Assembly (NCBI GenBank): GCA_005879795.1
Contig: VBKJ01000134.1
Coordinates: forward strand, 2,515 to 66,514
Direction of reading: 5' to 3'
Origin: Deltaproteobacteria bacterium
GTDB lineage: Bacteria > Desulfobacterota > Binatia > DP-6
Length of the DNA: 64,000 nucleotides
Shown: positions 11,740 through 51,963 of the stretch, in pieces
Layout of the letters: every line of letters starts with the position of its first letter
How positions within the stretch are numbered: the stretch's first letter is position 1
Position numbers and translations under genes: made by a program
Notes under the pieces: generated by a model
Told to the model about the DNA's origin: nothing
Seen by the model: only the letters and a program-made list of their open reading frames with translations
Databases searched by the model: none

Positions 11740-12939
11740 ATGAGGACGCTCGTACCCTTCCTGCTCAGTCTCGTCTCGCTGCTCGGACCGCGCAGCGGAT
11801 GGGGTTGTCAACTGCCTGCGACCGGGCAGACGACGTGTTGGGACACCAACGGGAGCGTCGTCCCGTGTGCCGGCACGGGTCAGGACGGCGACCTCCGGGA
11901 GGGAGCCCCGCTCGCGTACGTCGACAACGGAGACGGGACGGTCACGGACGTGACCACCGGGCTCGTGTGGGAGAAGCTCTCGAACGACGGGACGGTGCAC
12001 GACAAGGACAACTTGTACACGTGGGCCAACGCGTTCGCGGGGCACGTGGCGACGCTCAACGGCACGACCTTCGCGGGCCACGCCGACTGGCGGCTGCCGA
12101 ATTTGCGGGAGCTGCAGAGCATCGCGAACTACCAGAACGCCCTGCCGGCGGTGTCCCCGGCCTTCAACAACAACTGCTCGTCGGGCTGCCCCGTGACCAC
12201 GTGCAGCTGCACCTACAACGGCGACTACTGGTCGTCCACGTCCGAGGCCCTCAGCCCGTCGCATGCGTGGTTCGTGGACTTCCAGGACGGCCTCCTGGCC
12301 ACGGGCGGTAAGACCGGCACCGAACCCGTTCGGGCCGTGCGGGGCGGCTCGACGTCCTGCCCGCTGCCTGCGACCGGGCAGACGACGTGTTGGGACAGCA
12401 GTGGGAGCGTCATCCCGTGTGCCGGCACGGGTCAGGACGGCGACCTCCGGGAGGGAGCCCCGCTCACGTACGTCGACAACGGGAACGGGACGGTCACGGA
12501 CGTGAACACCGGGCTCGTGTGGGAGAAGCTCTCGGACGACGGGACGGTCCACGACAAGGACAACTTGTACACGTGGGCCAACGCGTTCACCGGGCACGTG
12601 GCGATACTCAACGGCATGAGCTTCGCCGGCCACGCCGACTGGCGGGTACCGAACGTGCGCGAGCTGCAGAGCATCCTGAACTACCAGAACGTCCTACCGC
12701 CCGTGTCCCCCGCCTTCAACAACAACTGCTCGGCGGGCTGCTCCGCGACCACGTGCAGCTGCACCCTCGAGGGCGACTACTGGTCGTCCACGTCCAGCGT
12801 CTCCGGTCCGTCGAATGCGTGGTTCGTCGGCTTCCAGTACGCCAACGTGAACTCCTTCGGCAGGACTGGCGGCAAGAGTGGCACGGCCTCCGTTCGGGCC
12901 GTGCGCGGCAGCTCCAGCTGTTGCGGGTGCGGTGGGTGA
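11740..12939 (+). CDS. Secreted protein with two tandem DUF1566 (Lcl C-terminal-like) domains
   Basis: 399 aa with a signal peptide. Two repeats of about 185 aa each contain TGLVWEKLS.DGTVHDKDNLYTWANAF, the WRLPN(L/V)RELQSI motif, DYWSST and a Cys-rich tail. Confidence 0.6.
   Translation: MRTLVPFLLSLVSLLGPRSGWGCQLPATGQTTCWDTNGSVVPCAGTGQDGDLREGAPLAYVDNGDGTVTDVTTGLVWEKLSNDGTVHDKDNLYTWANAFAGHVATLNGTTFAGHADWRLPNLRELQSIANYQNALPAVSPAFNNNCSSGCPVTTCSCTYNGDYWSSTSEALSPSHAWFVDFQDGLLATGGKTGTEPVRAVRGGSTSCPLPATGQTTCWDSSGSVIPCAGTGQDGDLREGAPLTYVDNGNGTVTDVNTGLVWEKLSDDGTVHDKDNLYTWANAFTGHVAILNGMSFAGHADWRVPNVRELQSILNYQNVLPPVSPAFNNNCSAGCSATTCSCTLEGDYWSSTSSVSGPSNAWFVGFQYANVNSFGRTGGKSGTASVRAVRGSSSCCGCGG
11806..12912 (+). 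repeat. Direct tandem duplication (2 units of about 553 bp) inside the DUF1566 gene
   Basis: Unit 2 (about 12358-12912) repeats unit 1 (about 11806-12357) with high nucleotide identity; for example CTGCCTGCGACCGGGCAGACGACGTGTTGGGACA occurs at 11811 and 12363. The duplication is in frame. Confidence 0.8.
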
Positions 12940-20850: not shown

Positions 20851-22119
20851 CTAATGCCCGGCGTTCACCAGCGCCGCGACCGTGAACCAGTCGTCCGTCA
20901 CCCCCGCCTTCTCGCCCTGGTTGAAGTACCAGCCCTGCTCGCCCGGAAAACGGTGGCTCGGGAGGGAGGCCTTGGTCGCGTGCTCGAGCTGCACGTCGAC
21001 CATGACGATGGCCGGGGCGAAGATGCGCTCGTCCGGGTACTCGACGGCGCCGGGCGTGTCGAGGATCTTCCTCCGGATCATCACGTCGTTGATCCAGATC
21101 TTCCACAGCTCCCCGGCGCGATCGTACATGTCCGAGTACGGGATGCCCCACGCCTCCCTGTCGATGAAGAGGACGCGCTTGCCGAAGGCGTACTGCGAGA
21201 GCTTGGAGACGCCCTCGACGACGTGCACGCGCCGCCGCTCCCACACCTCGTCGAAGGCCCAGTCGACCCTGTCGTTCCACTGGACCGGGAAGTGCCGGCC
21301 GTGCGCCACCGCGAGCAGATCCCGCTCGCCGAGGTAGCGCCAGTCCATCCACGCGATGTGCCCCGCGTAGCCGCCGTAGCTGTCGACGTCCGTGTCCTGC
21401 CCGAAGAGCGCGTCCGAGCGCTGCGCGGTGGAGAGCCGGCGCACGCGGCGCAGCGCCGGCAGGTAGAGCCAGGCGTCGTCCTGCTTGGCAGCGTCCAGGT
21501 AGCGGTAGCTGACGAAGCCGACGCCCTTCACGTCGAAGGGCTCGAGGATCGGGTAGAGCCCCTGCTGGAGCTCGTAGCCGCTCGGGTTGGGCGCCTTCTC
21601 GGGCTTCGGGTCGACGTAGAGCCGCCCGACCCAGTAGAGGCGCCGGAAGTGATCGATCAAGAAGTGACGCTCGACCGTCATCGGGCCGTGGTCCGCGATC
21701 GCCCCGGTGTCGGCGTCGAAGTTGCGCGCATCGAGGTCGTCGGTCGCGAAGAAGTTGTGGTCGTAGTTCCACATGATCTTGACCGCGACCTGCGGGTCCT
21801 TCGCGTCGATGAAGGGGAAAGGCAGCCCCGCGACGTAGTCGCGCAGCGTCACCCCGTCGGCGGCGAGCCGCACCTGGCCCGAGTACCGCTCCGTCGCCTC
21901 CCGGTAGGCGCGCGGCCACTCGATGCGCCGGCTCTCGCCGACGGTGAGCGGGAACCCGTGCCGAACACACCACTCGAGCCCGGGCGAGATCAGCTCCCGC
22001 ACCTGCTCGACGTTCGCCTCGGTGATGCGGTCCCCCGCTGCAACGTCCGCCCGTGCTGCCCCGCCGAAGACGAGCGCCACCACGCCCGCCACGGCGACCC
22101 GCGCTGCCGGAAGCCCCAC
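20851..22119 (-). CDS. Secreted DUF1329-like family protein, paralog 1 of 4 (start uncertain, between 22119 and 22272)
   Basis: It shares ISPGLEWC..GFP, LYLPALRRVRRLSTAQRSDALFGQDTDVDSYGGY and SHRFPGEQGWYFNQGEKAG ... AALVNAGH with the three downstream paralogs. It has a signal peptide (VAVAGVVALVFGGAARA). Assignment to Pfam DUF1329 is from memory of the family. Confidence 0.6.
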   Translation of the reverse strand: MGLPAARVAVAGVVALVFGGAARADVAAGDRITEANVEQVRELISPGLEWCVRHGFPLTVGESRRIEWPRAYREATERYSGQVRLAADGVTLRDYVAGLPFPFIDAKDPQVAVKIMWNYDHNFFATDDLDARNFDADTGAIADHGPMTVERHFLIDHFRRLYWVGRLYVDPKPEKAPNPSGYELQQGLYPILEPFDVKGVGFVSYRYLDAAKQDDAWLYLPALRRVRRLSTAQRSDALFGQDTDVDSYGGYAGHIAWMDWRYLGERDLLAVAHGRHFPVQWNDRVDWAFDEVWERRRVHVVEGVSKLSQYAFGKRVLFIDREAWGIPYSDMYDRAGELWKIWINDVMIRRKILDTPGAVEYPDERIFAPAIVMVDVQLEHATKASLPSHRFPGEQGWYFNQGEKAGVTDDWFTVAALVNAGH

Positions 22120-22273
22120 TGAACGCCGGCCGCGCTGTCGCCGCGGCGCTTCATGCGGGCGCGGGGGCGCCGGCGCAGCGCCTATGAGGCGCCGAGCGCG
22201 ACGGGCGGCCAGAGCTCCGGCGCCGAGCGGCGCCGAATCGAAGCGGAGCCGGCGCCCCCGCGCCCGCAGCACG

Positions 22274-23539
22274 TCAATGCCCTGCGTTCACGAGCGCGGC
22301 CACCGTGAAGAACTCGTCGGAGATCCCTGCCTTCTCGCCCTGGTTGAAGTACCAGCCCTGCTCGCCCGGGAAGCGGTGGCTCGGGAGCGCCGCCTTGGTC
22401 GCGTGCTCGAGCTGCATGTCCACCATGACGATGGAGGGCTGGAACCCGATGTCGTCCGGGTACTCGATCACGCCCGCGCCGTCGAAGGCCTTCTTCTTGA
22501 AGCTCCAGTCGTTGATCCAGATCTTCCACAGCTCGCCCGAGCGGTCGTAGATGTCGGAGTACGGGACCACCCACGCCTCCTTGTCGATGAAGATGACGCG
22601 CTTGCCGTAGGCGTACTGCGGCAGCTTGGAGACGCCCTCCACCACCCACACCTTGCGTTTCTCCCACACGTCGTCGAAGGCCCAGTCGGTCTTGTCGTCC
22701 CACTTCACGGGGTAGTGCCGCGCGTGCATGGTGCCGAGCAGCTCGCGCTCGCCGATGAACTTCCAGGTCATCCAGGCGACGTGGCCGGCGTAGCCGTAGT
22801 AGCTGTCGACGTCGGTGTCCTGGCCGAAGAGCGCGTCCGAGCGCTGGGCGGTGGAGAGGCGGCGCACGCGGCGGAGCGAGGGCAGATAGAGCCACGAGTC
22901 GTCCTGCTTCGTGGGGTCGATGTAGCGCTGGCCGACCGCGCCCACGCCCTTCAGGTCGAACGGCTCGAGGACCGGGTAGAGCCCGAGCTGGCTCCGGTAG
23001 CCGTTCGGGTTCGGCTTCTCGGGTTTGGGGTCGACGTAGAGGCGGCCGGTCCAGAACTGCGAGCGCAGGTGGTCGAGGAGGAAGTGCCGCTCGATGCTCA
23101 TCGGGCCGTGGTCGGCGACGGCGCCCGTGTCGGCGTCGAAGTTCCGCAGATCGAGATCGTCGGTCGGGTTGAACTTGTACTCGTAGTCCCACATGATCTT
23201 GAGCGCGATCTGCGGATCCTTCGGATCCAGGTCCGGGAAAGGCTGGCCGGCGACGAAGTTCTGCACGCTGAGGCCGTCGGGCGCGAGCTTCACCTGGCCG
23301 GAGTACTTCTCGGTGGCCTCCTTGTAGGCCTTCGGCCACTCGATGCGCCTCGGCTCCACGATCGTCATCGGGAAGCCGCGCTTGATGCACCACTCCATGC
23401 CGGGCGAGATCAGGTCCTTCACCTTGTCGATGTTCTGATCGGTGATCCTGTCGCCGGGTGCGACCTCCGCGCGCGCCGCCAGCCCGAGCAGCGCGACGCC
23501 GAGCGCCACCGCGACCGCCACGCCGGGTCTTCTCGTCAT
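22274..23539 (-). CDS. Secreted DUF1329-like family protein, paralog 2
   Basis: 421 aa starting MTRRPGVAVAVALGVALLGLAARA (ATG 23539..23537 verified). It carries the same conserved blocks. The 801-aa ORF in this frame is read-through. Confidence 0.65.
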   Translation of the reverse strand: MTRRPGVAVAVALGVALLGLAARAEVAPGDRITDQNIDKVKDLISPGMEWCIKRGFPMTIVEPRRIEWPKAYKEATEKYSGQVKLAPDGLSVQNFVAGQPFPDLDPKDPQIALKIMWDYEYKFNPTDDLDLRNFDADTGAVADHGPMSIERHFLLDHLRSQFWTGRLYVDPKPEKPNPNGYRSQLGLYPVLEPFDLKGVGAVGQRYIDPTKQDDSWLYLPSLRRVRRLSTAQRSDALFGQDTDVDSYYGYAGHVAWMTWKFIGERELLGTMHARHYPVKWDDKTDWAFDDVWEKRKVWVVEGVSKLPQYAYGKRVIFIDKEAWVVPYSDIYDRSGELWKIWINDWSFKKKAFDGAGVIEYPDDIGFQPSIVMVDMQLEHATKAALPSHRFPGEQGWYFNQGEKAGISDEFFTVAALVNAGH

Positions 23540-23556
23540 CTTCGGCTCCTTCGCGA

Positions 23557-24825
23557 TCAGTGCCCCGCGTTCACGAGCGCCGCGACCGTGAACCACTCGT
23601 CGACGACGCCGGCCTTGTCGCCCTGGTGGTAGTACCAGCCCTGCTCGCCCGGGAAGCGGTGGCTCGGGAGCGCCGCCTTGGTCGCGTGCTCGAGCTGCAT
23701 GTCCACCATCACGATCGCGGGCGCGAAGGGCAGCTCGTCCTCGTACTCGAGCACCCCCGCGCCCTCGAAGGCCTTCTTGCGGAAGCCCACGTCGTTGATC
23801 CAGATCTTCCACAGCTCGCCGGAGCGGTCGTAGATGTCGGTGTAGGGGATGCCCCAGGTCTCCTTGTCGATGAAGAGCACGCGCTTGCCGTAGGCGTACT
23901 GCGGCAGCTTCGAGATGCCCTCGAGCACGTAGACGTGCCGCTTCTCCCACACCTCGTCGAAGGCCCAGTCGACCTTCTCGTGCCACTTCACCGGGTAGTG
24001 CTGCGCGTGGACGATGCCCAGCAGGTCGCGCTCGCCGAGGTACTTCCAGTCCATCCAGCCGACCTGGCCCGCATAGCCGTAGTAGCTGTCGACGTCGGTG
24101 TCCTGGCCGAAGAGCGCGTCGGAGCGCTGCGCGGTGGACAGGCGACGGACCCGCCGCAGTGACGGCAGGTAGAGCCACGAGTCGTCCTGCTTGTCCGGGG
24201 AGAGGTAGCGGTTGCCGAGCGCGCCCACGCCCTTCAGGTCGAAGGGCTCGAGCACCGGGTAGAGGCCCTGCTGCGCGCGGTAGCCGTTGGGGTTCGGCTT
24301 CTCCGGCTTGGGGTCGACGTACAGGCGCCCGTTCCAGAACAGGCGGCGGAAGTGGTCGAGGAGGAAGTGGCGCTCGATCGTCATCGGCCCATGGTCGGCG
24401 ATGGACCCGGTGTCGGCGTCGAAGTTCCGCAGGTCGGTGTCGTCGAGGCCGTTCACGTACCCGTAGTCGTAGTTGAACATGACCTTGATGACGAACTGCG
24501 GGTCCTTCGCGTCGGGATTGGGGAAGGGCTGGCCGGCGACGTAGTTCTGCATCGTGCGGCCGTCGGGCGACAGCTTCACCTGCGCGGCGTACTTCTCGGT
24601 CGCCTCCTTGTAGGCACGTGGCCACTCCACCGCCTTGGTCGCCCCGATGGTCATCGGGAAGCCGTGCTTGATGCACCACTCCATCCCGGGCGAGATCAGC
24701 TCCTTCACCTTGTCGATGTTCGCCTCGGTGATCCTGTCCCCGATCGCGACGTCGGCGCGCCCGGGCGCCGCGAGCAGCACGGGCACGACGGCGAGCGCGG
24801 CGGCGAGCCTCCGTGTCGTGGTCAT
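23557..24825 (-). CDS. Secreted DUF1329-like family protein, paralog 3
   Basis: 422 aa starting MTTTRRLAAALAVVPVLLAAPGRA (ATG 24825..24823 verified). Confidence 0.65.
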   Translation of the reverse strand: MTTTRRLAAALAVVPVLLAAPGRADVAIGDRITEANIDKVKELISPGMEWCIKHGFPMTIGATKAVEWPRAYKEATEKYAAQVKLSPDGRTMQNYVAGQPFPNPDAKDPQFVIKVMFNYDYGYVNGLDDTDLRNFDADTGSIADHGPMTIERHFLLDHFRRLFWNGRLYVDPKPEKPNPNGYRAQQGLYPVLEPFDLKGVGALGNRYLSPDKQDDSWLYLPSLRRVRRLSTAQRSDALFGQDTDVDSYYGYAGQVGWMDWKYLGERDLLGIVHAQHYPVKWHEKVDWAFDEVWEKRHVYVLEGISKLPQYAYGKRVLFIDKETWGIPYTDIYDRSGELWKIWINDVGFRKKAFEGAGVLEYEDELPFAPAIVMVDMQLEHATKAALPSHRFPGEQGWYYHQGDKAGVVDEWFTVAALVNAGH

Positions 24826-24911
24826 CGATTCGCCCTCCCTCGGCTGGAAACGCCCGGACCGCCGGCCGATCGCCTGGCGGCCCCGGGTGGCGACATCCCC
24901 GACGCTCCGCT

Positions 24912-26189
24912 CTAGTGTCCGGCGTTCACCAGCGCGGCCACCGTGAACCAGTCGTCGGTGACGCCCGCCTTCTCGCTCTGGTTGAAGTACCAGCCCTGCT
25001 CCCCCGGGAAGCGGTGGCTCGGGAGCGAGGCTTTGGTCGCATGCTCGAGCTGCATGTCCACCATGACGATCGCCGGGATGAAGCCGCGGTCCTCCCCGTA
25101 GTCGATCACGTTGGCGCCCTCGAAGGCCTTCGGGCGGAAGCTCACGTCGTTGACCCAGACCTTCCAGAGCTCGCCGGAGCGGTCGTAGATGTCGGAGTAC
25201 GGGATGATCCAGGCCTCTTTGTCGACGAAGATGACGCGCTTGCCGTAGGCGTACTGCGGGAGCTTGGAGATGCCCTCGATGACGTACACCCGGCGCTTCT
25301 CCCACGTCTCGTCGAATGCCCAGTCGACCTTGTCGTTCCACTTCACCGGGTAGTTCTTCGCGTGGTAGCAGCTCAGGAGGTCGCGATCGCCCAGGTACTT
25401 GAAGTCCATCCAGGCAATGTGGCCGCTGTAGCCGTAGTAGCTGTCGACGTCGGTGTCCTGCCCGAAGAGCGCGTCCGAGCGCTGCGCGGTGGAGAGGCGG
25501 CGCACCCGCCGGAGTGACGGCAGGTAGAGCCACGAGTCGTCCTGCTTCTCGGAGGAGATGTAGCGGTTGCCGAGCGCGCCCACGCCCTTCAAGTCGAACG
25601 GCTCGAGGATCGGGTAGAGGCCCTGCTGGGCGCGGTAGCCGTTGGGGTTCGGCTTGTCGGGCTTGGGATCGACGTAGAGCCGGCCGGTCCAGAAGAGGCG
25701 GCGGAAGTGGTCGAGCAGGAAGTGGCGCTCCACCGTGAGCGGCCCGTGGTCGGCGATCGCCCCCGTGTCGGCATCGAAGTTGCGCAGGTCGACGTCGTCG
25801 GTGGTCAGGTGGTTGTAGCTCCAGTTCCACATGATCTTGAGCGCGACCTGCGGGTCCTTGGTGTCGACGTTCGGGAAGGGCAGCCCGGCGACGTAGTTGA
25901 GGACGTTGAGACCATCGGGCGTGAGCTTCACCTGGCTCGCGTACTTCTCGGTCGCCTCCTTGTACGCCTTCGGCCACTCGACCCGCTTGGTCTCGCCGAT
26001 GGTCATCGGCCAGCCGTGCTTGATGCACCACTCCATCCCGGGCGAGATGAGATCCTTGACCTTGTCGATGTTCTGCTCGGTGATCCGGTCGCCGGGTACG
26101 ACGTCGGCGCGCGCGGTGAAGGGAAGGATCGCGAGCGCGAACGTGGCGGCGCCCGCCAGCGCCAGCCACCAGCCGGGCTTCTTCGACAT
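24912..26189 (-). CDS. Secreted DUF1329-like family protein, paralog 4
   Basis: 425 aa starting MSKKPGWWLALAGAATFALAILPFTARA (ATG 26189..26187 verified). Confidence 0.65.
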   Translation of the reverse strand: MSKKPGWWLALAGAATFALAILPFTARADVVPGDRITEQNIDKVKDLISPGMEWCIKHGWPMTIGETKRVEWPKAYKEATEKYASQVKLTPDGLNVLNYVAGLPFPNVDTKDPQVALKIMWNWSYNHLTTDDVDLRNFDADTGAIADHGPLTVERHFLLDHFRRLFWTGRLYVDPKPDKPNPNGYRAQQGLYPILEPFDLKGVGALGNRYISSEKQDDSWLYLPSLRRVRRLSTAQRSDALFGQDTDVDSYYGYSGHIAWMDFKYLGDRDLLSCYHAKNYPVKWNDKVDWAFDETWEKRRVYVIEGISKLPQYAYGKRVIFVDKEAWIIPYSDIYDRSGELWKVWVNDVSFRPKAFEGANVIDYGEDRGFIPAIVMVDMQLEHATKASLPSHRFPGEQGWYFNQSEKAGVTDDWFTVAALVNAGH

Positions 26190-28988: not shown

Positions 28989-29936
28989 CTAGCTCCCGGG
29001 CCGATCCGCCGACCCGACCAGGTGGACGAACAGATCCTCGAGGGTGGGCGGGCTCGCCCGCACCTCGAGGAGCGTCCAGCCGCGCGCCACCATCGCGGCG
29101 CCGAGCGCCCGCTGCACCGGCTCGGGATCGTGCGCGAAGAGTGCGAAGGGAGTGCCCGCGAGGCCGTCCGGCCGACGGCGCTCCACCCGCACGACGCCCG
29201 GCAGCGTGCCGAGCGCGGCGGCCACCGTATCGGCGGGACCGTCCACGCGCACAGCGAGCTGTGCCAGGCCCGCCAGGCGCTGGGCCAGGCCCTCCGGCGT
29301 GTCGACCGCCACCAGCCGCCCGCGGGAGAGGATCACGATGCGCGAGCACAGGGCGGCCGCCTCGGAGAGAATGTGCGTCGAGAGGAGCATCGTACGCCCG
29401 GCGAGCGTACGCAGCAGCGCCCGCATCTCGACCGTCTGCATCGGGTCGAGGCCGACGGTCGGCTCGTCGAGCACGAGCACGTCCGCGTCCCCGACCAGCG
29501 CCTGCGCGAGCCCGACCCGCTGGCGATACCCCTTCGACAGCTTGCCGGCCAGGCGATCGGCGACCTCGGCGAGGCCGCACCGCGCGATGGCATCGGCCAC
29601 CGCGGCGCGGCGCGCGCGCCCGCCGAGCCCCTTCACCTCGGCCACGAAGGCCAGGTAGCGGCGCACCGTCAGCTCCGGATAGAGGGAGACCTGCTCGGGG
29701 AGATAGCCGATGCGCCGCCGGGCGGCCGCCGGCTGCTCGGCGACGTCCGCCCCGTCGATGCACACCCTCCCGGCGGTGGGTGGGAAGTAGCCGGTCAGCA
29801 CGCGCATCAGCGTGCTCTTGCCGCTGCCGTTCGGCCCGAGCAGCGCCGCCACCTCGCCCCGCCCGATGGTGAACGACACGTCGTCCACCGCGCAGGTCGT
29901 CCCGTAGTACTTGGTCAGGTGCTCGACGCTGATCAC
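28989..29936 (-). CDS. ABC transporter ATP-binding protein (GldA-like)
   Basis: 315 aa with a Walker A (GPNGSGKST), a signature (LSKGYRQRVGLAQAL) and a Walker B (VLVLDEPTVGLD). Confidence 0.8.
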   Translation of the reverse strand: MISVEHLTKYYGTTCAVDDVSFTIGRGEVAALLGPNGSGKSTLMRVLTGYFPPTAGRVCIDGADVAEQPAAARRRIGYLPEQVSLYPELTVRRYLAFVAEVKGLGGRARRAAVADAIARCGLAEVADRLAGKLSKGYRQRVGLAQALVGDADVLVLDEPTVGLDPMQTVEMRALLRTLAGRTMLLSTHILSEAAALCSRIVILSRGRLVAVDTPEGLAQRLAGLAQLAVRVDGPADTVAAALGTLPGVVRVERRRPDGLAGTPFALFAHDPEPVQRALGAAMVARGWTLLEVRASPPTLEDLFVHLVGSADRPGS

Positions 29937-30022
29937 GCTAATGCCGCCCGGCTCAAGGCCTCACCGCCACTCAATAGCCGCTGCGCGGAGCCGCGCAACC
30001 GCGCTCGATGATGGGCGCCGCC

Positions 30023-30185
30023 GTGCAGCGGCCGGTGTCGGCCGGGTGCCGCCGCCGCGACCTCCGCAGGCCCGCACGCGCCGGCAGCTGTGCGGGGGGA
30101 CGCTGCGGCCGACGGGCGCGCGCGTGGCCGAGGACGCGGGAGCGCCGGCGGCACGCCGCCGACGCCCCGCCGCGGCCCTCGCCTA
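30023..30185. repeat. Structured GC-rich intergenic repeat element of about 165 bp, copy B (second copy at 50600..50768)
   Basis: About 85% nucleotide identity to copy A. A shared 14-bp long-range helix shows a compensatory G-C to C-G swap between the copies. It lies inside the minus-strand operon between the RND gene and the ABC ATPase gene. Confidence 0.65.
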
Positions 30186-30321
30186 GTGCCCCACCCGCGC
30201 CGCCCCTTCGCGCTCGCGCCGCTTGCGCCGCCGCGCGTGGATGATCTCGTCCATGACGATGACGGCGATGCTGAACACCGTGACGATGATGACCGATTCC
30301 CACAGCGTCATCGCGGCCTCC

Positions 30322-33006
30322 CTAGCTGACCGCCGCGGCCTGCGCCTGGACCACCGGGCGCCGCGACGCCTTCCCCCCCTCGCGCAGGATGAAGCCGGGG
30401 CGGAAGTACGAGATCATCACCGGCAGCAGTGTCTCGGAGCAGATGAAGCTGACGCCCATCCACACCGCCAGCAGCCCGCCCATGACGGCGTTGAAGCGGA
30501 TGTTCGAGAACGTCCACAGCGCCGTGCCGCCGATCATGCAGACCGCCGTGAAGCTCACCGCCTTGCCCGAGGTCACGAGCGCCTCGCGGATGGAGAGGTC
30601 GAGGTTGTTGTTGACCCGGATCTCCTCGATGATGCGGGAGAGGATGTAGAGACCGTAGTCGATCCCGAAGCCGACGCCGACCGTGACCAGCGGGAGCGTG
30701 TTCACGTTGATGCCGATCTCGAACACCGCCATGGCTGCGTTGATGAGGATGTTCGAGATGAAGAGCGGCGCCAGGAGGTAGAGGCCGGCGACCCACGAGC
30801 GGTAGCTGAACAGGACGATGACGTAGATCGTGAAGAAGCCGAGGAAGTTCATGAGCAGGTCGTTGCGCACGAGCTCCTCGTTGGCCGCCGCGAGCACCCC
30901 GATGAGCCCGCCGGCAAGCTTGAAGGTCGCCTTCCCGTCCATGTTGTTCTCGGGCCTGGCGATGAAGTCTTTGCACTCCTGGATGATGCGCGCGATGTTG
31001 TCGCCCTTGTGGTTGCGGGCGAAGAAGGTCACGTGCGAGGTGGTGTAGCTCGGGTCCACGTACTTCGCCGTCTCGGTCGGCGGCGAGCCGGAGAAGAAGA
31101 TGAAGAAGGTCTGCGCCACGTCGCGCGAGTTGTTGGGGATGACGCCCCACTTCGGCTCGAGCTCGTGGAAGACCATGTTGACCGCACGCAGGATGTCGGT
31201 GAGCGAGAAACTGTAGCCCACGTCCCGGTCGCGCTCGAGGTAGCGCTGGAAGTTCTCCATGGTGCGCAGCACCTTGGGGTCCTTCATGGCGTCGCGGTCC
31301 TTGCCCTCGGCGACGACGATCAGAGGCTCCACTCCGCCGAACTTGTCCTGGATGTGGGCGTGGGAGACGTTGTAGGGCGAGTCGCTCCACACCAGGGGCG
31401 AGGCCGAGGTCGGGTCGCCGACGATCAGGCCGCGCATGAGGAACGCGCCCACCGCCGTCAGCCCGAGCCAGAACACCATGGTCGTCCCCTTGCCGAGCGA
31501 CGAGAGGTTCCAGTCCGTGACGCGGTTGATGAGCGCCTTGTACCACCCCTTGTCGCGCGCCAGCACGACCTCGGGGTCGGGGGCCCGCAGGTAGTAGTAC
31601 ACGATCGGGTTCAGCAGCAGCTCGGCGACGGTGATGGCGAGGATCCACCACGAGATGACGATCGCCAGGTTGCGCAGCATGACGATCGGCACGAGGATGA
31701 TGACGAGCACGCCGAGCGCGTCGGTCACCACCCCGGCGAAGGTCGGGATGAAGAGCTCGGCGAAGGCCGCCACGATCGCCTTCCGCTGGTTCCAGTCGTG
31801 GCGCTCGAACTCCTCGTAGTAGCGGTCGTGCATCTGGATGGCGTGGCTCACGGCGCGGGCCGTCACCAGGAAGGGCATCACCAGGATGAGCGGGTCGAGA
31901 GCGAAGCCGATGATGTGTACGAAGCCGAGGCCCCAGAAGGCGGCGATGAGCCCGGTGAGCGTCGGGCGCAGCGCTCCGCGCCAGTCGTGGAAGTACATCC
32001 AACGGAAGATCCACTCGAAGCAGTAGGTGACGGTGAGGATCCAGAACACGTCGCTCGCGTAGCTGTAGACCCAGCCGTAGAGGCGCGGCTCGCCGGCGAC
32101 GTACAACTCGAGGTCGGGCTCGGGGATGGTGAGCTGGGCGTCTCTGGTTTCCTCGCCGCTCTTCACGCCGAGCCTGACGGTCGTCCCGGGCTTGTACTTC
32201 TGGATCTCCGCCGCCAGCTCCACCCGGTCCGCCACCGGCTTCCCGTTGACCGACACGATGATGTCCCCCACCTTGAGCCCGGCCCTGGCCGCCGCCGTGT
32301 CGCGGTAGACGGTGTCCACCGCCGCGGCCGCCGAGGTCTCGCCCTTGAACGCGTCCCGGCCCCTGATGAGCGCACCGATCCAGCCCTTCTCGAAGGGCGC
32401 GATGACCCGCTCGTTGATCTCGGTGAAGGTGCGGCGGTGATCGAGGCGTGCTTCGATGAAGTTGGCGCGCACCAGGGCGGCCCGGTCGTCGAGCGAGACG
32501 AGGATGCCGTAGATGCTCTCGGTGTTGTGGACGATGCGCTTGATGTTGGCCGCGTCGTCTGCCGTCTTCGGCATCTGGATCATCACTGGCTCGGCCTTCA
32601 GGAACCCGCCCGCCTGGGCGCGGAGGTAGCGAGTCGTGCGGTGGCCGATCGAGTCGATCTGGTTGTGGTTCACGCCGTAGACGCGGTCCATCTCCTCCGT
32701 GATCTTGTAGATGCGATCGAGGGTCGAGACCGTGAAGATGTCGCCGTCCTTCACCTCGACCATCAGCTGGATGTTGTTGGCGCCGCCGAACGTGCCGGCG
32801 TACTTGTTGTGGACCTGGACGAAGGGGTGGCTCTGCGGGAGGAGGTCGCCGAAGCTCGTCTCGAGCTTCAGCTGGAAGCTCAGCCACGCGAAGTACCCCG
32901 TGACGATGAGCACCACGATCATGACCGGGTGGCGGTAGTCGATCAGCCGCTCGCCCAGCCAGTAGAGTGCTCGCTTGTCCTCTTCGCTCGTGGTTCCGCT
33001 GCTCAT
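30322..33006 (-). CDS. RND-superfamily (MMPL/HAE3-like) exporter with a PDZ domain inserted in the first periplasmic loop
   Basis: 894 aa in two halves of 6 TM segments each. A PDZ-like segment sits at roughly aa 225-305 (AARAGLKVGDIIVSVNGKPVADRVELAAEIQKYKPGTTVRLGV). Confidence 0.7.
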   Translation of the reverse strand: MSSGTTSEEDKRALYWLGERLIDYRHPVMIVVLIVTGYFAWLSFQLKLETSFGDLLPQSHPFVQVHNKYAGTFGGANNIQLMVEVKDGDIFTVSTLDRIYKITEEMDRVYGVNHNQIDSIGHRTTRYLRAQAGGFLKAEPVMIQMPKTADDAANIKRIVHNTESIYGILVSLDDRAALVRANFIEARLDHRRTFTEINERVIAPFEKGWIGALIRGRDAFKGETSAAAAVDTVYRDTAAARAGLKVGDIIVSVNGKPVADRVELAAEIQKYKPGTTVRLGVKSGEETRDAQLTIPEPDLELYVAGEPRLYGWVYSYASDVFWILTVTYCFEWIFRWMYFHDWRGALRPTLTGLIAAFWGLGFVHIIGFALDPLILVMPFLVTARAVSHAIQMHDRYYEEFERHDWNQRKAIVAAFAELFIPTFAGVVTDALGVLVIILVPIVMLRNLAIVISWWILAITVAELLLNPIVYYYLRAPDPEVVLARDKGWYKALINRVTDWNLSSLGKGTTMVFWLGLTAVGAFLMRGLIVGDPTSASPLVWSDSPYNVSHAHIQDKFGGVEPLIVVAEGKDRDAMKDPKVLRTMENFQRYLERDRDVGYSFSLTDILRAVNMVFHELEPKWGVIPNNSRDVAQTFFIFFSGSPPTETAKYVDPSYTTSHVTFFARNHKGDNIARIIQECKDFIARPENNMDGKATFKLAGGLIGVLAAANEELVRNDLLMNFLGFFTIYVIVLFSYRSWVAGLYLLAPLFISNILINAAMAVFEIGINVNTLPLVTVGVGFGIDYGLYILSRIIEEIRVNNNLDLSIREALVTSGKAVSFTAVCMIGGTALWTFSNIRFNAVMGGLLAVWMGVSFICSETLLPVMISYFRPGFILREGGKASRRPVVQAQAAAVS

Positions 33007-40160: not shown

Positions 40161-40518
40161 TTCGCTCGTCCGTGCGCGCGAGCGCGGGGGCGCCGTCTCC
40201 GCTTCGCTGCGCCGGCCGCACAGGCCGCCCCGGTCGCGCGCTCCGCGCCGGCCGCAGAGGCGCTGCGACGGCGCCCCCGCGCTCGCGCTCGCTGCCTCGC
40301 CTCCTAGAGAAGCAGCGCCACTTCCCCGGCGACGACTGGTAGCGTTGGACGAGGTCCGTGCCTCGGACGAGCCGGAACGCGCGACGCTCGACGGACGCGT
40401 TCGTCGCGAACGCCGTCCCGCTCTGCTTGCGGCACATGCCGCAGTGGCAGAGGGCGATGGGGCCGAGCTCGCCCTTCACCTCGTACGCGACACCTCCGCA
40501 GAGACAGGTGCCGGTCAT
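40105..40518 (-). CDS. GFA-family (CENP-V/glutathione-dependent formaldehyde-activating-like) protein, possibly degenerate at the C-terminus
   Basis: The N-terminus (MTGTCLCGGVAYEV ... CHCGMCRKQSG) has the Cys-rich GFA motifs. After GKWRCF the expected C-x-x-C-G-S motif is absent. The remaining roughly 55 codons read straight through the palindromic element and overlap the protease gene. Confidence 0.4.
   Translation of the reverse strand: MTGTCLCGGVAYEVKGELGPIALCHCGMCRKQSGTAFATNASVERRAFRLVRGTDLVQRYQSSPGKWRCFSRRRGSERERGGAVAAPLRPARSARPGRPVRPAQRSGDGAPALARTDERINRRDAAAASAAWRRSRS
40174..40288. repeat. GC-rich palindromic element of about 115 bp
   Basis: The arms are perfect 22-nt reverse complements: GCGCGCGAGCGCGGGGGCGCCGTC at 40174-40197 and GACGGCGCCCCCGCGCTCGCGC at 40267-40288. 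The spacer contains direct repeats of GCGCCGGCCGCA. It lies at the convergent junction of the protease and GFA genes. Confidence 0.7.
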
Positions 40519-47677: not shown

Positions 47678-49552
47678 TTGACCCCGATGCTGGACGGCGC
47701 CGCGACCCCGCGCAAGCCCGTCGAGGCGCGCGACACGGTCGTCATCCGTTTCGCCGGCGACTCGGGTGACGGCATGCAGGTGACCGGCATGCAGTTCACC
47801 ACCGAGTCGGCGCTGGCGGGCAACGACCTCGCCACCCTGCCCGACTTCCCGGCCGAGATCCGCGCCCCCGCCGGCACGCTCGCCGGCGTGAGCGCCTTCC
47901 AGCTCAACTTCTCCTCGCACGAGGTCTTCACCCCCGGCGACGACCTCGACGTCCTGGTCGCCATGAACCCGGCCGCCCTCAAGATGAACGTCGGCGACCT
48001 CAAGTCGGGCGGCATCCTGATCGTCGACCGCGAGGGCTTCAACGAGCAGAACCTGAAGAAGGCCGAGTACGAGTCGAACCCGCTCGAGGACGGCTCGCTC
48101 CGGCGCTACCAGCTCTTCCAGGCCGAGGTGACCAAGCTCACCACGGCGGCGCTCAAGGACCTGGGACTCTCGGCACGCAGCGTCTTCCGCTGCCGGAACT
48201 TCTTCTGCCTCGGCATGACGTCCTGGCTCTACCACCGGCCGATCGAGCCCGCCGAGGCATGGATCAAGGAGCGCTTCAAGAAGACGCCGGAGGTGGTCGA
48301 GGCGAACGTGCGCGCGCTGCGCGCCGGCTTCAACTTCGCCGAGAACGCCGAGCTGTTCTCCGTCTCGTACGAGATCCGGCCGGCCACGATCGCCCCCGGC
48401 AAGTACCGCAACATCACCGGCAACACGGCGACCGCGCTCGGCTTCGTGTGCGCGGCCACGAAAGCGGGACGGCCCCTCTTCCTCGGCAGCTACCCGATCA
48501 CGCCCGCGAGCGACGTGCTGCACGAGCTCTCGGGCTGGAAGCAGTACGGCGTCTACACCTTCCAGGCCGAGGACGAGATCGCCGGCATCGGCGCCGCGCT
48601 CGGCGCGGCCTTCGGCGGCGCGATCGCCATCACCACCACCAGCGGCCCGGGCATGAACCTGAAGGCCGAGACCGTCGGCCTGGCGCTCGCCGTCGAGCTG
48701 CCGATCGTCGTGACCGACATCCAGCGCGCCGGCCCCTCCACCGGCATGCCCACCAAGACCGAGCAGGCCGATCTCCTGATGGCCATGTACGGCCGCCACG
48801 GCGAGTCGCCGGTCCCGGTGCTGGCCGCGGCCACGCCCGCCGACTGCTTCTTGATGGCCTTCGAGGCGGTGCGCATCGCGGTCAAGTACATGACGCCGGT
48901 CGTCCTGCTGACGGACGGCTACCTCGCCAACGGCGCCGAGCCGTGGCTGATCCCCGACCCGGCTGCGCTCCCCGACGTGCCGGTCGCCTTCCGCACCGAT
49001 CCGGGCGCGTTCTTCCCGTATCTCCGCGACGAGGAGACGCTCTCGCGCCCGTGGGTCATCCCCGGTACGCCCGGCCTCGAGCACCGCATCGGCGGCCTCG
49101 AGAAGGAGTACCTGACCGGCAACGTGAGCTACGCGCCCACCAACCACGAGCAGATGATCCGGGTGCGCGCGCGGAAGATCGCCGGCATCGTCAGGGAGAT
49201 CCCTCCGCTCACGGTCTCCGGTCCGCCCGAGGGCGAGCTGCTCGTCGTCGGCTGGGGCAGCACCTACGGCTCGATCACGCAGGCGGTGCGTGACCTGCAG
49301 GCGGCCGGCCACGCCGTCGCCCACGTACACCTCCGGCACCTGAACCCCCTCCCCTCCGACCTGGGCGGCATCCTCGGCCGCTACCGGCGGATCCTCGTTC
49401 CCGAGATGAACCTGGGACAGCTCGTGCGCCTGCTGCGCGCCGAGTACCTGGTCGACGCGATCGGCTTCAACAAGATCCAGGGCCGTCCCTTCAAGGTGTC
49501 CGAGATCGCGAGCCGGTGCCTCAAGCTCCTCGGCAAGGAGAGCCTCGCGTGA
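47678..49552 (+). CDS. korA: 2-oxoacid:ferredoxin oxidoreductase, fused alpha/gamma subunit
   Basis: 624 aa. The N-terminal gamma-like domain has GDSGDGMQVTG. The alpha domain has GSYPITPASD and TTTSGPGMNLKAE. Confidence 0.8.
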   Translation: MTPMLDGAATPRKPVEARDTVVIRFAGDSGDGMQVTGMQFTTESALAGNDLATLPDFPAEIRAPAGTLAGVSAFQLNFSSHEVFTPGDDLDVLVAMNPAALKMNVGDLKSGGILIVDREGFNEQNLKKAEYESNPLEDGSLRRYQLFQAEVTKLTTAALKDLGLSARSVFRCRNFFCLGMTSWLYHRPIEPAEAWIKERFKKTPEVVEANVRALRAGFNFAENAELFSVSYEIRPATIAPGKYRNITGNTATALGFVCAATKAGRPLFLGSYPITPASDVLHELSGWKQYGVYTFQAEDEIAGIGAALGAAFGGAIAITTTSGPGMNLKAETVGLALAVELPIVVTDIQRAGPSTGMPTKTEQADLLMAMYGRHGESPVPVLAAATPADCFLMAFEAVRIAVKYMTPVVLLTDGYLANGAEPWLIPDPAALPDVPVAFRTDPGAFFPYLRDEETLSRPWVIPGTPGLEHRIGGLEKEYLTGNVSYAPTNHEQMIRVRARKIAGIVREIPPLTVSGPPEGELLVVGWGSTYGSITQAVRDLQAAGHAVAHVHLRHLNPLPSDLGGILGRYRRILVPEMNLGQLVRLLRAEYLVDAIGFNKIQGRPFKVSEIASRCLKLLGKESLA

Positions 49553-50556
49553 GCGCCTCCGAGCAGAAGCTCACCAGGAAGGACTTCGTCTCCGACCAGG
49601 ACGTGCGCTGGTGCCCGGGGTGCGGGGACTACGCCGTCCTCTCGCAGGTGCAGAAGGTGCTCCCCGAGCTCGGCGTGCCGCGCGAGAACTTCGTCTTCAT
49701 CTCGGGCATCGGCTGCTCGAGCCGCTTCCCGTACTACGTGAACACCTACGGCTTCCACTCGATCCACGGACGGGCGCCCGCGATCGCGACGGGACTCAAG
49801 GCGACGCGCCCCGAGCTCTCGGTGTGGGTCGTCACCGGCGACGGCGACGCGCTCTCGATCGGCGGCAACCACCTGATCCACGTGCTGCGCCGCAACCTCG
49901 ACATCAACATCCTGCTCTTCAACAACAAGATCTATGGCCTCACCAAGGGCCAGTACTCGCCCACCTCCGAGGTCGGCAAGGTGACCAAGTCGACGCCCGC
50001 CGGCTCGGTCGACCACCCCTTCGACCCGATCGCGCTCGCCCTCGGCGCCGAGGCGAGCTTCGTCGCGCGCAGCGTCGACGTCGAGTCGAAGCACCTGCAG
50101 GAGATCGTGCGCCGCGCGCACGAGCACAAGGGCGCCGCCTTCGTCGAGATCCTCCAGAACTGCAACGTCTTCAACGACGGGGCGTTCAACGACGTGACCG
50201 ACAAGGCCACCAAGGCCGACTCGACACTCGTCCTCGAGCACGGGAAGCCGCTCGTCTTCGGCAGGAACCGCGACCGGGGCATCCGCCTGCGTGACTTCCA
50301 GCCCGAGGCGGTCGAGCTGGGGGGCGGGATCACGGAGGCCGATCTGCTCGTCCACGACGAGCGCAACCCTGCCCTCGCCTACCTGATCGCACGCCTGGGG
50401 CCGCCCCGCTTCCCGACCCCGATCGGCGTCTTCACCGCCGTCGAGCGCCCGCGCTACGAGGACGCCTTGAACCAGCAGGTCGCCGCCGCCAAGGCAAAGT
50501 CGCCGGCCGATCTCGGCGCCCTTCTGAACCGCGGCGACACCTGGGTCGTCTCCTAA
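49549..50556 (+). CDS. korB: 2-oxoacid:ferredoxin oxidoreductase, beta subunit (TPP-binding)
   Basis: A GTG start overlaps the korA stop (GTGA). It has WCPGCGDY and the TPP motif GDGDALSIGGNHLIH. Confidence 0.8.
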   Translation: MSASEQKLTRKDFVSDQDVRWCPGCGDYAVLSQVQKVLPELGVPRENFVFISGIGCSSRFPYYVNTYGFHSIHGRAPAIATGLKATRPELSVWVVTGDGDALSIGGNHLIHVLRRNLDINILLFNNKIYGLTKGQYSPTSEVGKVTKSTPAGSVDHPFDPIALALGAEASFVARSVDVESKHLQEIVRRAHEHKGAAFVEILQNCNVFNDGAFNDVTDKATKADSTLVLEHGKPLVFGRNRDRGIRLRDFQPEAVELGGGITEADLLVHDERNPALAYLIARLGPPRFPTPIGVFTAVERPRYEDALNQQVAAAKAKSPADLGALLNRGDTWVVS

Positions 50557-50599
50557 TCGGGATCAGGGACGACGGGAGGTAGGAGGTCGCGACGCCGCG

Positions 50600-50768
50600 G
50601 CAGCGTGCGGTGGCGGGGTGCCACCGCGGCGACCTCCACAGGCCCGCGCGCGCCTGCAGCTTCGCGGGGGGACGTGACGGCCAGCGCGGCGCGCGTGGCC
50701 GAGGACGCGGGAGCCGCGGCGGCACCCCGCCGCCGCCACCCCGCCGCACTCTCGGCGCGCTCGCCTAC
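50600..50768. repeat. Structured GC-rich intergenic repeat element of about 165 bp, copy A
   Basis: It aligns to 30023..30185 at about 85% identity with small non-triplet indels. It is flanked by short inverted repeats (CGCGACGCCGCGG at 50588 and CCGCCGTCGCG at 50769). It lies between the convergent korB and CBS genes. Confidence 0.65.
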
Positions 50769-51219
50769 CCGCCGTCGCGCCCGCGCCAGCGTTCGCCGCG
50801 CGCCGGGTCCGGCGGCACCGTGAGCACCTCGTTCGGGAAGAAGTCGGCGATGTAGTCGATGATGTCCTTCGCCGATACCACGCCGACCGGCTGGCCCGCC
50901 TCGGTGACCAGCGGCACGTGACGGAAGCCGCCCACGCTCATCTTGTTGAGGGCGTAGACGATCGGATCGTCGGGCGAGAGCACCTCGGGGTCGGGCGTCA
51001 TGAAGTCGCGCACCGAGCGCTTCTCGTCGCCCTGCCCCAGCTTCATGATGAAGTCGCGCTCGGTGACGATGCCGTGACGCTGTCGGCGGGCGCGAGGCAG
51101 AGGGGCGGCCGGGGGGCGAGATAGCGGATGGGCTCCCGGATCATGCGCTGATCGAGCACGCGTGGCGCCCGCTCGCCGCCGGTGAGGAGACTCAGATCCT
51201 CCTCGAGCCATTCGTCCAT
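50765..51219 (-). pseudogene. CBS-domain pair protein disrupted by a single-nucleotide frameshift
   Basis: The ATG at 51219..51217 opens MDEWLEEDLSLLTGGERAPRVLDQRMIREPIRYLAPRPPLCLAPADSV in one frame. The CBS core (HGIVTERDFIMKLGQGDEKRSVRDFMTPDPEVLSPDDPIVYALNKMSVGGFRHVPLV ... VGVVSAKDIIDYI) continues in the -1 frame from about 51090. The total span of 455 nt is not a multiple of 3. Confidence 0.45.
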
Positions 51220-51291
51220 GGCGCTCCCTCCTTGCCCCGAGGGCCGGTGATCGCTGGTGAGCCGGAGTCTCCGCCCGGACGCGAAAGGCTG

Positions 51292-51963
51292 TCAAGCGCG
51301 GAGGTCGAGGCCCGCCATCACGCCCGTGGTCCGGGGTAGGCTCACTTCCCCCCGCGCCAGGAGAGCGCGCAGGCGGGCCAGGTCCGCGGGCTGGTCGACG
51401 TCGAAGCTCGGGGGCAGCAGGTGTGGGGCGAGGCCCGCGGCGCCGGCCCGCGCGAGCGTCGCCTCGAGCACCCCGGCCGTTCCCCAGGCGATGCCCGCGA
51501 ACAGGTCCGGGGCCGGCCTCCCGAGGCCGATCAGGTAGTAGCCGCCGTCCGCCGCGGGTCCGAGCACGACGTCCGCGCCGTGCGCGAGCGCGGCTGCGGC
51601 CTCGGCCAGCGCCGCCGCTGGGATGTGTGGCGCGTCGGCGCCGATGGCGACGACGGGTCCGGGGCCCGCGGCGAACTCCTCGCCGATCGCCCCTGTCAGG
51701 CGCTCGCCCAGGTCGCGGCCACGCTGCGGGCGGCACCCGGCCCCGGGGAGCAGCTCGGGGAAGGGCGCATCGGGCGGCGTGTACGCCCAGGTGACGGCAT
51801 AGGGCATCGCGCCCAGGCGCTCGGCCAGGTCGAGCACGAACGCGCGGTAGAGCGCACAGGCCGCGTCGGCACCGAGCGTGGCGGCGAGCCGCGTCTTCAC
51901 CCGGCCCGCGACCGGGTGCCTCGCCATGACGACGACACGGGCTCCAGGAGGCGGTTCGGGCAC
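51292..51963 (-). CDS. TIGR04282/DUF2064-family glycosyltransferase-like protein
   Basis: 223 aa starting MPEPPPGARVVVMARHPVAGRVKTRLA, with GADAPHIPAAAL and DGGYYLIGL, the hallmarks of DUF2064. Confidence 0.6.
   Translation of the reverse strand: MPEPPPGARVVVMARHPVAGRVKTRLAATLGADAACALYRAFVLDLAERLGAMPYAVTWAYTPPDAPFPELLPGAGCRPQRGRDLGERLTGAIGEEFAAGPGPVVAIGADAPHIPAAALAEAAAALAHGADVVLGPAADGGYYLIGLGRPAPDLFAGIAWGTAGVLEATLARAGAAGLAPHLLPPSFDVDQPADLARLRALLARGEVSLPRTTGVMAGLDLRA

Follow-up and report, generated by a model that had tools for sequence, protein, structure and literature searches.

A dispersed family of long palindromic hairpins at gene 3′ ends, probably of the REP/REPIN kind, with two copies in a 64-kb stretch of a Binatia contig

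A GC-rich element of about 165 bp is present twice in a 64,000-nucleotide stretch of contig VBKJ01000134.1 (assembly GCA_005879795.1, Deltaproteobacteria bacterium, GTDB class Binatia), hereafter the window. One copy (copy B) is located inside an operon and the other (copy A) between two convergent genes, and an original prediction made from the letters of the window noted that base changes between the two copies appear to preserve a helix. The locus therefore raises the question of what kind of element this is, whether a dedicated RNA, a site in the DNA or a mobile repeat, and for which function its pairing is kept. We consider it probable that the element belongs to a family of extragenic palindromic repeats resembling the repetitive extragenic palindromic sequences (REPs) and REP doublets forming hairpins (REPINs), acting as a hairpin in 3′ untranslated regions (UTRs). 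The assignment to this kind follows from the GC-rich palindrome, the many copies, their location in spacers at gene 3′ ends, their occurrence in both orientations, in clusters and in mosaics, their variability between strains and their compensatory changes. The mechanism by which such a hairpin would act is proposed with less confidence than the kind.

Two copies in the window and their relatives in metagenomes

When the 64-kb window was compared with itself by blastn, positions 30015-30181 and 50589-50751 were found to be homologous, with 81.4% identity over 167 nt and an E value of 1.3e-39. No third copy was detected in the window (approximately 71% G+C), the remaining matches being short, GC-rich and with E values of 1e-3 or worse. 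A MAFFT alignment that included the flanks (30000-30210 against 50577-50790) gave a mean column identity of 83%. The homology originally claimed is correct and its figure of about 85% identity slightly too high, and single-base indels in the MAFFT alignment agree with the claim that the copies are separated by non-triplet indels. The 14-bp helix described at the same time is also real, and constitutes the inner portion of a hairpin that is far longer. The helix is formed in copy A by GGTGCCACCGCGGC paired with GCCGCGGCGGCACC. As read from the sequence and as first reported, position 7 of this helix is A.C in copy A and G-C in copy B, and at position 12 copy A has G-C where copy B has C-G; across the family, 54 copies have C-G at position 12 and 38 have G-C. 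In copy B the 3′ arm, on the other hand, is GCGCCGGCGGCAC and not GCGGCGGCGGCACC as had been stated, and displays an extra C.C mismatch at position 11, beside the compensated pair. This mismatch is also present in 32 of 94 family members.

Relatives of the two copies were retrieved by exact matches to the conserved 3′ arm, which is therefore the search bait of this study. A 22-mer from the arm was contained in at least 118 of the metagenome contigs scanned, the record names of which point to soil metagenome projects, and at least 141 copies were found in those contigs by nhmmer. The retrieved contigs and loci are labelled by L-numbers. A covariance model (R1, with 139 positions and 42 pairs) found at least 113 copies in 100 sources, 99 of them distinct, among 119 loci searched. 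More than 100 copies scored between 93 and 128 bits, and at least seven matches were cut off at contig ends, as expected for repeats that break assemblies. Two of the metagenome contigs are very close to the window, L231, of the same strain, with 99.9% identity and L177 with 97%, and copy B is present in both; the whole spacer is highly diverged between the window and L177 and is thus uninformative on rates.

The contigs of a one-genome-per-species collection were scanned with a 19-mer from the same arm (GTGGCCGAGGACGCGGGAG), which returned at least 120 rows. The sole full-length copy among the genome-collection matches listed has 82% identity and lies on a contig of a Candidatus Methylomirabilota metagenome-assembled genome (MAG; L078), likewise between convergent genes. 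Together with the 71% G+C and the soil source, this MAG suggests that the hosts of the family belong to Methylomirabilota, probably of the Rokubacteria type, whereas the record of the window itself is assigned to Binatia. In about 80 rows (within L001-L120, for example L018 7125-7143), the 19-mer is located inside a conserved coding gene of Solirubrobacterales/Actinomycetota MAGs; these were rejected as family copies, since their flanks vary at the third codon position and the overlap is by chance. No family match was found in the viral contigs scanned. Searches of Rfam 15 at gathering and at permissive thresholds, with the window, with eight loci and with the elements alone, gave no match, the best hits being noise of 16 bits or less. 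The family, absent from Rfam and from the literature searched, is apparently undescribed.

A fixed core inside a covarying stem

Each full copy is predicted to fold into one imperfect hairpin of approximately 140 nt, at about −113 to −138 kcal/mol. The minimum free energy (MFE) is −120 kcal/mol for copy A and −113 kcal/mol for the L231 copy, which is identical to copy B. Against dinucleotide shuffles, individual full-length copies have z-scores of −6.6 to −8.4 and a 129-nt piece of copy A has −4.45; a truncated piece of copy B (z −0.18) was indistinguishable from shuffles.

In the covariance-model alignment of the 99 distinct copies, standard pairs fill 97.7% of 3862 pair cells, compared to 85.0% in shuffles and 35-57% when the partners were moved by 1-3 columns. 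Both sides have changed in 22 of the 42 pairs, and 382 cells carry such changes where 96 are expected from shuffles. Covariation was found in 20 of the 25 outer-stem pairs, and on each of five covariation measures the observed value was reached by none of 500 shuffles. This alignment is itself fitted to the structure; two counts made outside it agree with its result: Watson-Crick pairing, counted outwards from the core as anchor and free of any alignment, is at least 0.80 at positions 4-23 beyond the core and then falls to chance level, and RNAalifold on a plain MAFFT alignment gave 29 pairs, 12 of which show compensated double changes. The length of the outer stem peaks at 23-28 bp. Immediately beside the core, pairing is 0.45 at position 2 and 0.74 at position 3, and many copies have C.C or G.A/A.G mismatches there. 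A diverged subfamily (L148 694-827, L128 6850-6983 and L181 4393-4530) displays the same architecture with its core helix GGCC/GGCC swapped for GGCUC/GAGCC, GGUCC/GGACC or GCCUC/GAGGC.

The proposal that double substitution in the two window copies reflects a selected secondary structure is upheld in the 99 distinct copies by the excess of double changes and by the share of paired cells. The covariance model that had been suggested as a check scores both window copies and more than 100 others, and its pairs covary; the family is accordingly neither limited to two copies nor devoid of covariation in further members. Comparison of the copies, which are phylogenetically related and not independent, thus supports the view that pairing is under selection across the family.

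From the outside to the inside, a copy consists of a variable outer stem, two core arms and a variable apex. The 5′ arm (GCGACCTCCGCAGGCCCGCGCGCGCC) is conserved at 98.7% and the 3′ arm (GCGCGCGTGGCCGAGGACGCGGGAGC) at 99.5%, the invariance of the latter being partly produced by the exact-match bait, whereas column conservation is 78-79% in the outer stem and 83% in the apex, in which CGGGGGGACG is almost fixed and pairing is inconsistent between copies. Since the 5′ arm was no part of the bait, the core does differ from the outer stem in conservation. The arms, of 24-27 nt, are common to copies at unrelated loci. Within the fixed core, two C-G pairs separate the tandem GA/GA mismatch from a CGC bulge of 3 nt, and three pairs separate this bulge from the GCA/GA internal loop, past which there is a GC-rich helix that includes either a G.U pair or a bulged U. 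Copy B contains this arrangement, with its two near-invariant arms, the purine-rich GA/GA and GCA/GA loops, the CGC bulge and an apex that varies. Of 64 distinct flanks, 47 have an A at position −1, immediately 5′ of the stem, and the tail on the 3′ side is C-rich. So marked a difference between the fixed, asymmetric core and the freely covarying stem points to a specific binding partner.

Two candidate readings of this anatomy were rejected. The core is not a K-turn, because two Watson-Crick pairs separate the G.A pairs from the 3-nt bulge. Nor is the outer stem derived from the target, as it would be if the core had been inserted in pre-existing terminator hairpins, since unrelated loci have many of its positions in common, positions 5, 7 and 13-15 for example being more than 90% identical.

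Placement, strain variation and weighing of explanations

Genes were called with a caller based on codon-position G+C log-odds. Copies were outside the called genes at all of the 119 loci but one. Both flanking genes were called for 96 copies, representing roughly 23 or more independent loci: 44 copies were between convergent genes, 31 in sense-tandem and 21 in antisense-tandem contexts, and none between divergent genes, an absence expected with a probability of about 1e-3 were one spacer in four divergent. Where a stop codon faces the hairpin base, the median distance between them is 22 nt (quartiles 13-37); for a facing start codon it is 68.5 nt. In the tandem contexts, the element adjoins the stop codon of the upstream gene, whichever of its own ends faces that stop.

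At one site related strains differ in the presence of the element. L148 (694-827) and L128 carry a 134-nt element between two convergent genes, whereas the related L159 has in its place (approximately 4990-5040, reverse strand) a stem of 9 bp closed by a 4-nt loop, GCCAGGAGACAGCCTCCTGGC (GCCAGGAG-ACAG-CCUCCUGGC). The whole spacer differs between L159 and the other two, and no clean insertion junction is seen. One further spacer contains 1, 2, 3 or 4 tandem copies depending on the strain, and pieces of the gene ends on both sides are part of the repeated unit, which indicates tandem duplication by unequal recombination and not transposition. Reciprocal chimeras were also detected (L223 171-309 and L193 1089-1225, compared to L148 5342-5478 and L190 939-1077), each joining a 5′ half of one locus type to a 3′ half and flank of another. 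They suggest recombination between dispersed copies with rearrangement of the genome, or an artefact of metagenome assembly. No target-site duplication was found, the direct repeats flanking the copies being no longer than in shuffled controls. A bias relating to the replicated strand was considered unlikely, since copies on one contig are often opposite (L148, L219 and L181).

A second and unrelated family of GC-rich hairpins, of about 115 nt, has two copies in the window (22154-22268 and 40176-40288, 77% identical) with the outer stem GCGGGCGCGGGGGCGCCGG.../...CCGGCGCCCCCGCGCCCGC. Its copies are also found after gene 3′ ends, and elsewhere it is present in L133 (314-426 and 713-828), L197 (3829-3944 and 4053-4143), L122, L156 and L224. 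In L133 and L197 it alternates with the family studied here, in a mosaic resembling the bacterial interspersed mosaic elements (BIMEs).

A different arrangement was observed in L165, where an open reading frame (ORF) of 969 aa (3216-6125, minus strand; Radical_SAM_N2 + Radical_SAM ... DUF2344) runs without a stop through the 44 codons that span the element at 3967-4105. The same read-through ORF is present in L136, and the element lies between two parts of the protein, in a segment of negative coding score. In-frame insertion of the repeat in an interdomain linker, comparable to the Rickettsia palindromic elements (RPEs), would account for this, as would fusion of two genes by loss of a stop codon.

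Known REPs are biased towards convergent genes, cluster as BIMEs and influence the stability of mRNA (PMC3184786), and REPIN hairpins show compensatory changes (PMC3116915). With the REPs and BIMEs of E. coli and other Proteobacteria, the present family has in common that its members are GC-rich imperfect palindromes, multi-copy, extragenic and found in either orientation, that they follow gene 3′ ends or lie between convergent genes, that they form clusters and mosaics with other types of repeat, that they are recombination sites and differ between strains, and that an effect as a 3′-UTR hairpin, both terminator and stabiliser, is likely. It differs in the length of its unit (approximately 140 nt compared to 35 nt), in being conserved at the centre and variable on the outside, in belonging to another phylum, and in showing neither the GTAG-like tetranucleotide nor, in about 0.8 Mb, a REP-associated tyrosine transposase (RAYT). 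It resembles the REPIN-RAYT systems of Pseudomonas fluorescens and others in its long single hairpin, in which two highly conserved inverted arms flank a spacer of lower conservation, and shares with them frequent compensatory changes, clusters in tandem and the proposal of a single-stranded DNA form (PMC3116915). The covarying stem of 23-28 bp outside the arms is extra, however, and the pairing of the apical spacer inconsistent. REPINs have excision intermediates and, as their defining partner gene, a RAYT typically flanked by the repeats, no homolog of which was found here in about 0.8 Mb.

Under the REP/REPIN-like explanation, the element would form a very stable 3′ hairpin when transcribed either way, and the hairpin would, by analogy with the REPs of E. 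coli, attenuate read-through and block 3′-to-5′ exonucleases. REP325 of E. coli has such a dual role, as a partly Rho-dependent terminator and a stabiliser of mRNA (bioRxiv 10.64898/2026.03.23.713779). In many copies of the present family, the distance to a stop codon is about 15 nt or less. REPs of E. coli that are this close to a stop codon have been reported to lower translation of the gene upstream. More tentatively, the family may persist and multiply as DNA, through tandem duplication, recombination or gene conversion between copies, and an enzyme of the hairpin-recognising RAYT/HUH kind may read the asymmetric core on single-stranded DNA. An enzyme reading the core would explain why the 5′ arm is fixed while the outer stem need only pair.

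Several points weigh against this explanation. The role as terminator or stabiliser is argued from position and analogy alone, and no hairpin with a U-tract, as in a canonical terminator, was found at either window copy in either orientation; the opposite-strand tail of the hairpin has a single U. No RayT homolog was found at E values up to 10 when ORFs of at least 70 aa in the approximately 0.8 Mb of loci were searched by phmmer with E. coli RayT, a search of low power for a gene expected once per genome. A GTAG-like 5′ tetranucleotide is not conserved in the 64 distinct flanks, in which only the A at −1 recurs, and the extra variable outer stem departs from the layout of a textbook REPIN. 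The plus strand folds better than its reverse complement by about 3.7 kcal/mol on average and in 85 of 104 copies, the purine-rich loops and the conserved G.U pair are fixed on one strand, and such a strand-asymmetric fold is left unexplained by a purely orientation-blind role of the RNA. The fitted alignment, the kinship of the copies and the effect of the bait on the 3′ arm, all mentioned above, belong on the same side.

The asymmetry is what a strand-specific structured non-coding RNA would predict, whether as a multi-copy small RNA or as a cis-regulatory 3′-UTR motif, in which the plus-strand transcript is functional and a protein reads the invariant loops. The family does have a defined orientation, copy A scoring 99.9 bits on the plus strand and 11.8 bits on the reverse strand with the covariance model. 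The strong covariation, the better folding of the plus strand, and the GA/GA and GCA/GA loops, G.U pair and apical CGGGGGGACG, which are fixed in one orientation and kept in the diverged subfamily, all favour such an RNA, as does the predominance of G.U (n = 51) over A.C (n = 32) among covarying pairs, a small excess that comes from few subfamilies. Against it, orientation is mixed relative to neighbouring genes and within single contigs, with 31 sense and 21 antisense tandem copies, the latter including copy B, and a function of the plus-strand RNA would fail at about 40% of the tandem sites. The element is always near a stop codon whichever end faces it, copy number differs by strain, clusters are mosaic and Rfam has no match; neither window spacer contains a sigma-70-like promoter, although the promoters of this lineage are not known. 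A dedicated RNA of this kind is in our judgement unlikely, and of the RNA element first envisaged, the selected structure stands, while its identity as a dedicated RNA gene gives way to a dispersed family of the REP/REPIN type. Alternatively, the palindrome could act as DNA, as a cruciform or duplex bound by gyrase, IHF or a nucleoid protein or as a recombination site, the RNA hairpin being incidental. Such a site would work in either orientation, which together with the nearly invariant asymmetric core, the BIME-like clusters and mosaics, the chimeras that hint at recombination at the element, and the binding of IHF and gyrase by BIMEs (PMC3184786) makes it worth considering. It leaves unexplained, however, both the confinement to gene-3′-end spacers, 10-35 nt from stop codons, and the short simple hairpin at the same site in the element-less strain (L159). 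Compensatory change along a 25-bp stem also favours intrastrand pairing over recognition of a duplex, and the chimeras could be assembly artefacts; we regard a pure DNA site as doubtful.

A classical MITE (miniature inverted-repeat transposable element), meaning a cut-and-paste transposon that is non-autonomous, bears terminal inverted repeats and is moved by a DDE transposase, has an even smaller claim. The size of about 140-165 bp, the palindromic form, the many intergenic copies and the presence/absence polymorphism between strains do resemble ERIC, Correia and Nezha (PMC3184786). Members of this class (ERIC, Correia/NEMIS, Nezha, RUP), with lengths of 100-170 bp, also fold as a whole into a hairpin, are co-transcribed with upstream genes and are occasionally found in frame within ORFs, to be compared with the case of L165. 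The present family, however, has neither target-site duplications nor conserved termini: flanking direct repeats are not in excess of shuffled controls, and the ends are the least conserved part (78-79%) where inverted repeats bound by a transposase should be the most conserved. The sole empty site (L159) is a replacement of the whole spacer and not a clean insertion, and the extra copies at one locus are tandem duplications including the flanking gene ends. We find a cut-and-paste element improbable on these grounds. That the hairpins evolved independently as GC-rich terminators, or resemble each other by chance at 71% G+C, can for practical purposes be dismissed. In its favour, GC-rich shuffles fold nearly as well as the truncated piece of copy B and the window contains many weak GC-rich matches, but it is refuted by the match between the copies (E 1e-39), by the covariance-model scores in more than 100 copies and by arms of 24-27 nt common to unrelated loci, and the z-scores of the full-length copies speak against it as well. 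Hairpins without a U-tract, termed 'I-shaped' terminators, have been proposed for high-G+C bacteria. Intrinsic terminators, these included, resemble the element in standing right after stop codons or between convergent genes, and a short plain hairpin occupies the site in L159, which lacks the element; the element differs in being ten times longer, in forming a homologous family and in having a fixed core and no U-tract.

Returning to the REP/REPIN-like explanation, the requirement for pairing is in our view independent of orientation and fits an RNA 3′ hairpin, and the fixed asymmetric core is in our view better explained by a protein that recognises DNA, single-stranded or duplex. A bolder version, for which we see a slim chance, would have a dedicated protein dock at the core of the plus-strand hairpin, as RNA or single-stranded DNA, and the family would then be a new hairpin replicator independent of RAYT or, equally well, a new class of regulatory 3′-UTR RNA that is bound by protein and peculiar to Rokubacteria-type Methylomirabilota. 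The fast-covarying outer stem would in that case be a mere clamp, and the family more than a passive REP-like hairpin. If the partner of the core is a RAYT-like enzyme, the REPIN-RAYT association would be extended to a new phylum; otherwise a new mechanism would be indicated. A family of probable REP/REPIN type is hereby documented in an uncultured, large-genome soil phylum, for which Rfam and the literature searched describe none, and a calibrated covariance model with about 100 distinct copies is available as a resource. Repeats of this sort break metagenome assemblies and mark gene 3′ ends, and they may vary operon read-through by strain and mediate rearrangements.

Gene neighbourhood of the two window copies

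Gene calls and Pfam agree with the original placement of copy B between MMPL/RND-type and ABC genes of one minus-strand operon (Table 1). It sits in the 385-nt gap that separates the MMPL/PDZ and ABC ATPase genes, in the minus-strand order YCF48-like BNR protein, MMPL/PDZ protein, 42-aa ORF, copy B, ABC ATPase, ABC-2 permease, GldG-like auxiliary protein, DUF4340 protein and four DUF1329 paralogs. About 10 nt separate the stop codon of the 42-aa ORF from the hairpin base, and the start codon of the ABC ATPase is about 90 nt away from the hairpin. The position inside the operon agrees with the earlier statement that the element would be transcribed, but the consensus orientation of copy B is the plus strand, antisense to the operon, and a co-transcribed mRNA would hold the reverse complement of the consensus. 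Copy B may in this position be an attenuator or stabiliser within the operon that partitions expression between its MMPL and ABC parts. Copy A, which begins about 40 nt after the stop codon of the oxidoreductase beta subunit (50556) and is followed after about 18 nt by that of the converging CBS-domain ORF (50765), would be a two-way stop between convergent genes.

Table 1. Positions of the two hairpins, their parts and the adjacent genes in the window.
Feature	Position	Strand	Basis or description
Copy B, whole imperfect hairpin	30028..30173	+	covariance-model match 30032-30168, 92.7 bits
Copy B, core	30057..30143	+	GCGACCTCC... to ...GACGCGGGAGC; read from sequence
Copy B, conserved apical motif	30093..30102	+	CGGGGGGACG; read from sequence
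Copy A, whole imperfect hairpin, between convergent genes	50597..50747	+	covariance-model match 50604-50739, 99.9 bits
Copy A, core	50629..50714	+	GCGACCTCCAC... to ...GACGCGGGAGC; read from sequence, alignment
Copy A, conserved apical motif	50665..50674	+	CGGGGGGACG; read from sequence
42-aa ORF, transmembrane-like peptide	30183..30311	-	translation MTLWESVIIVTVFSIAVIVMDEIIHARRRKRREREGAARVGH and stop
MMPL/RND-type membrane protein with PDZ domain, upstream of copy B	30322..33006	-	Pfam MMPL 2.4e-16, PDZ_2 6e-12
ABC transporter ATPase, downstream of copy B	28989..29936	-	Pfam ABC_tran 7e-35
2-oxoacid:ferredoxin oxidoreductase beta-type subunit (thiamine pyrophosphate-binding)	49549..50556	+	Pfam TPP_enzyme_C 5e-32
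CBS-domain ORF converging on copy A	50765..51736	-	Pfam CBS 3.7e-15

The 42-aa ORF has no Pfam match. Its product would have one hydrophobic helix and a basic tail, its third-position G+C is high, and its ribosome-binding site, GGAGG, overlaps the end of the MMPL gene. Directly downstream of the ABC and GldG-like genes, the four DUF1329/LolA-like paralogs are arranged in tandem (20851-26189, minus strand), each of about 415-425 aa, with 74-86% DNA identity and a period of approximately 1.3-1.4 kb. Elsewhere in the window, a direct repeat of 300 nt with 93% identity was observed at 11812-12111 and 12364-12663, with a spacing of 552 nt and a perfect match of 36 nt within it.

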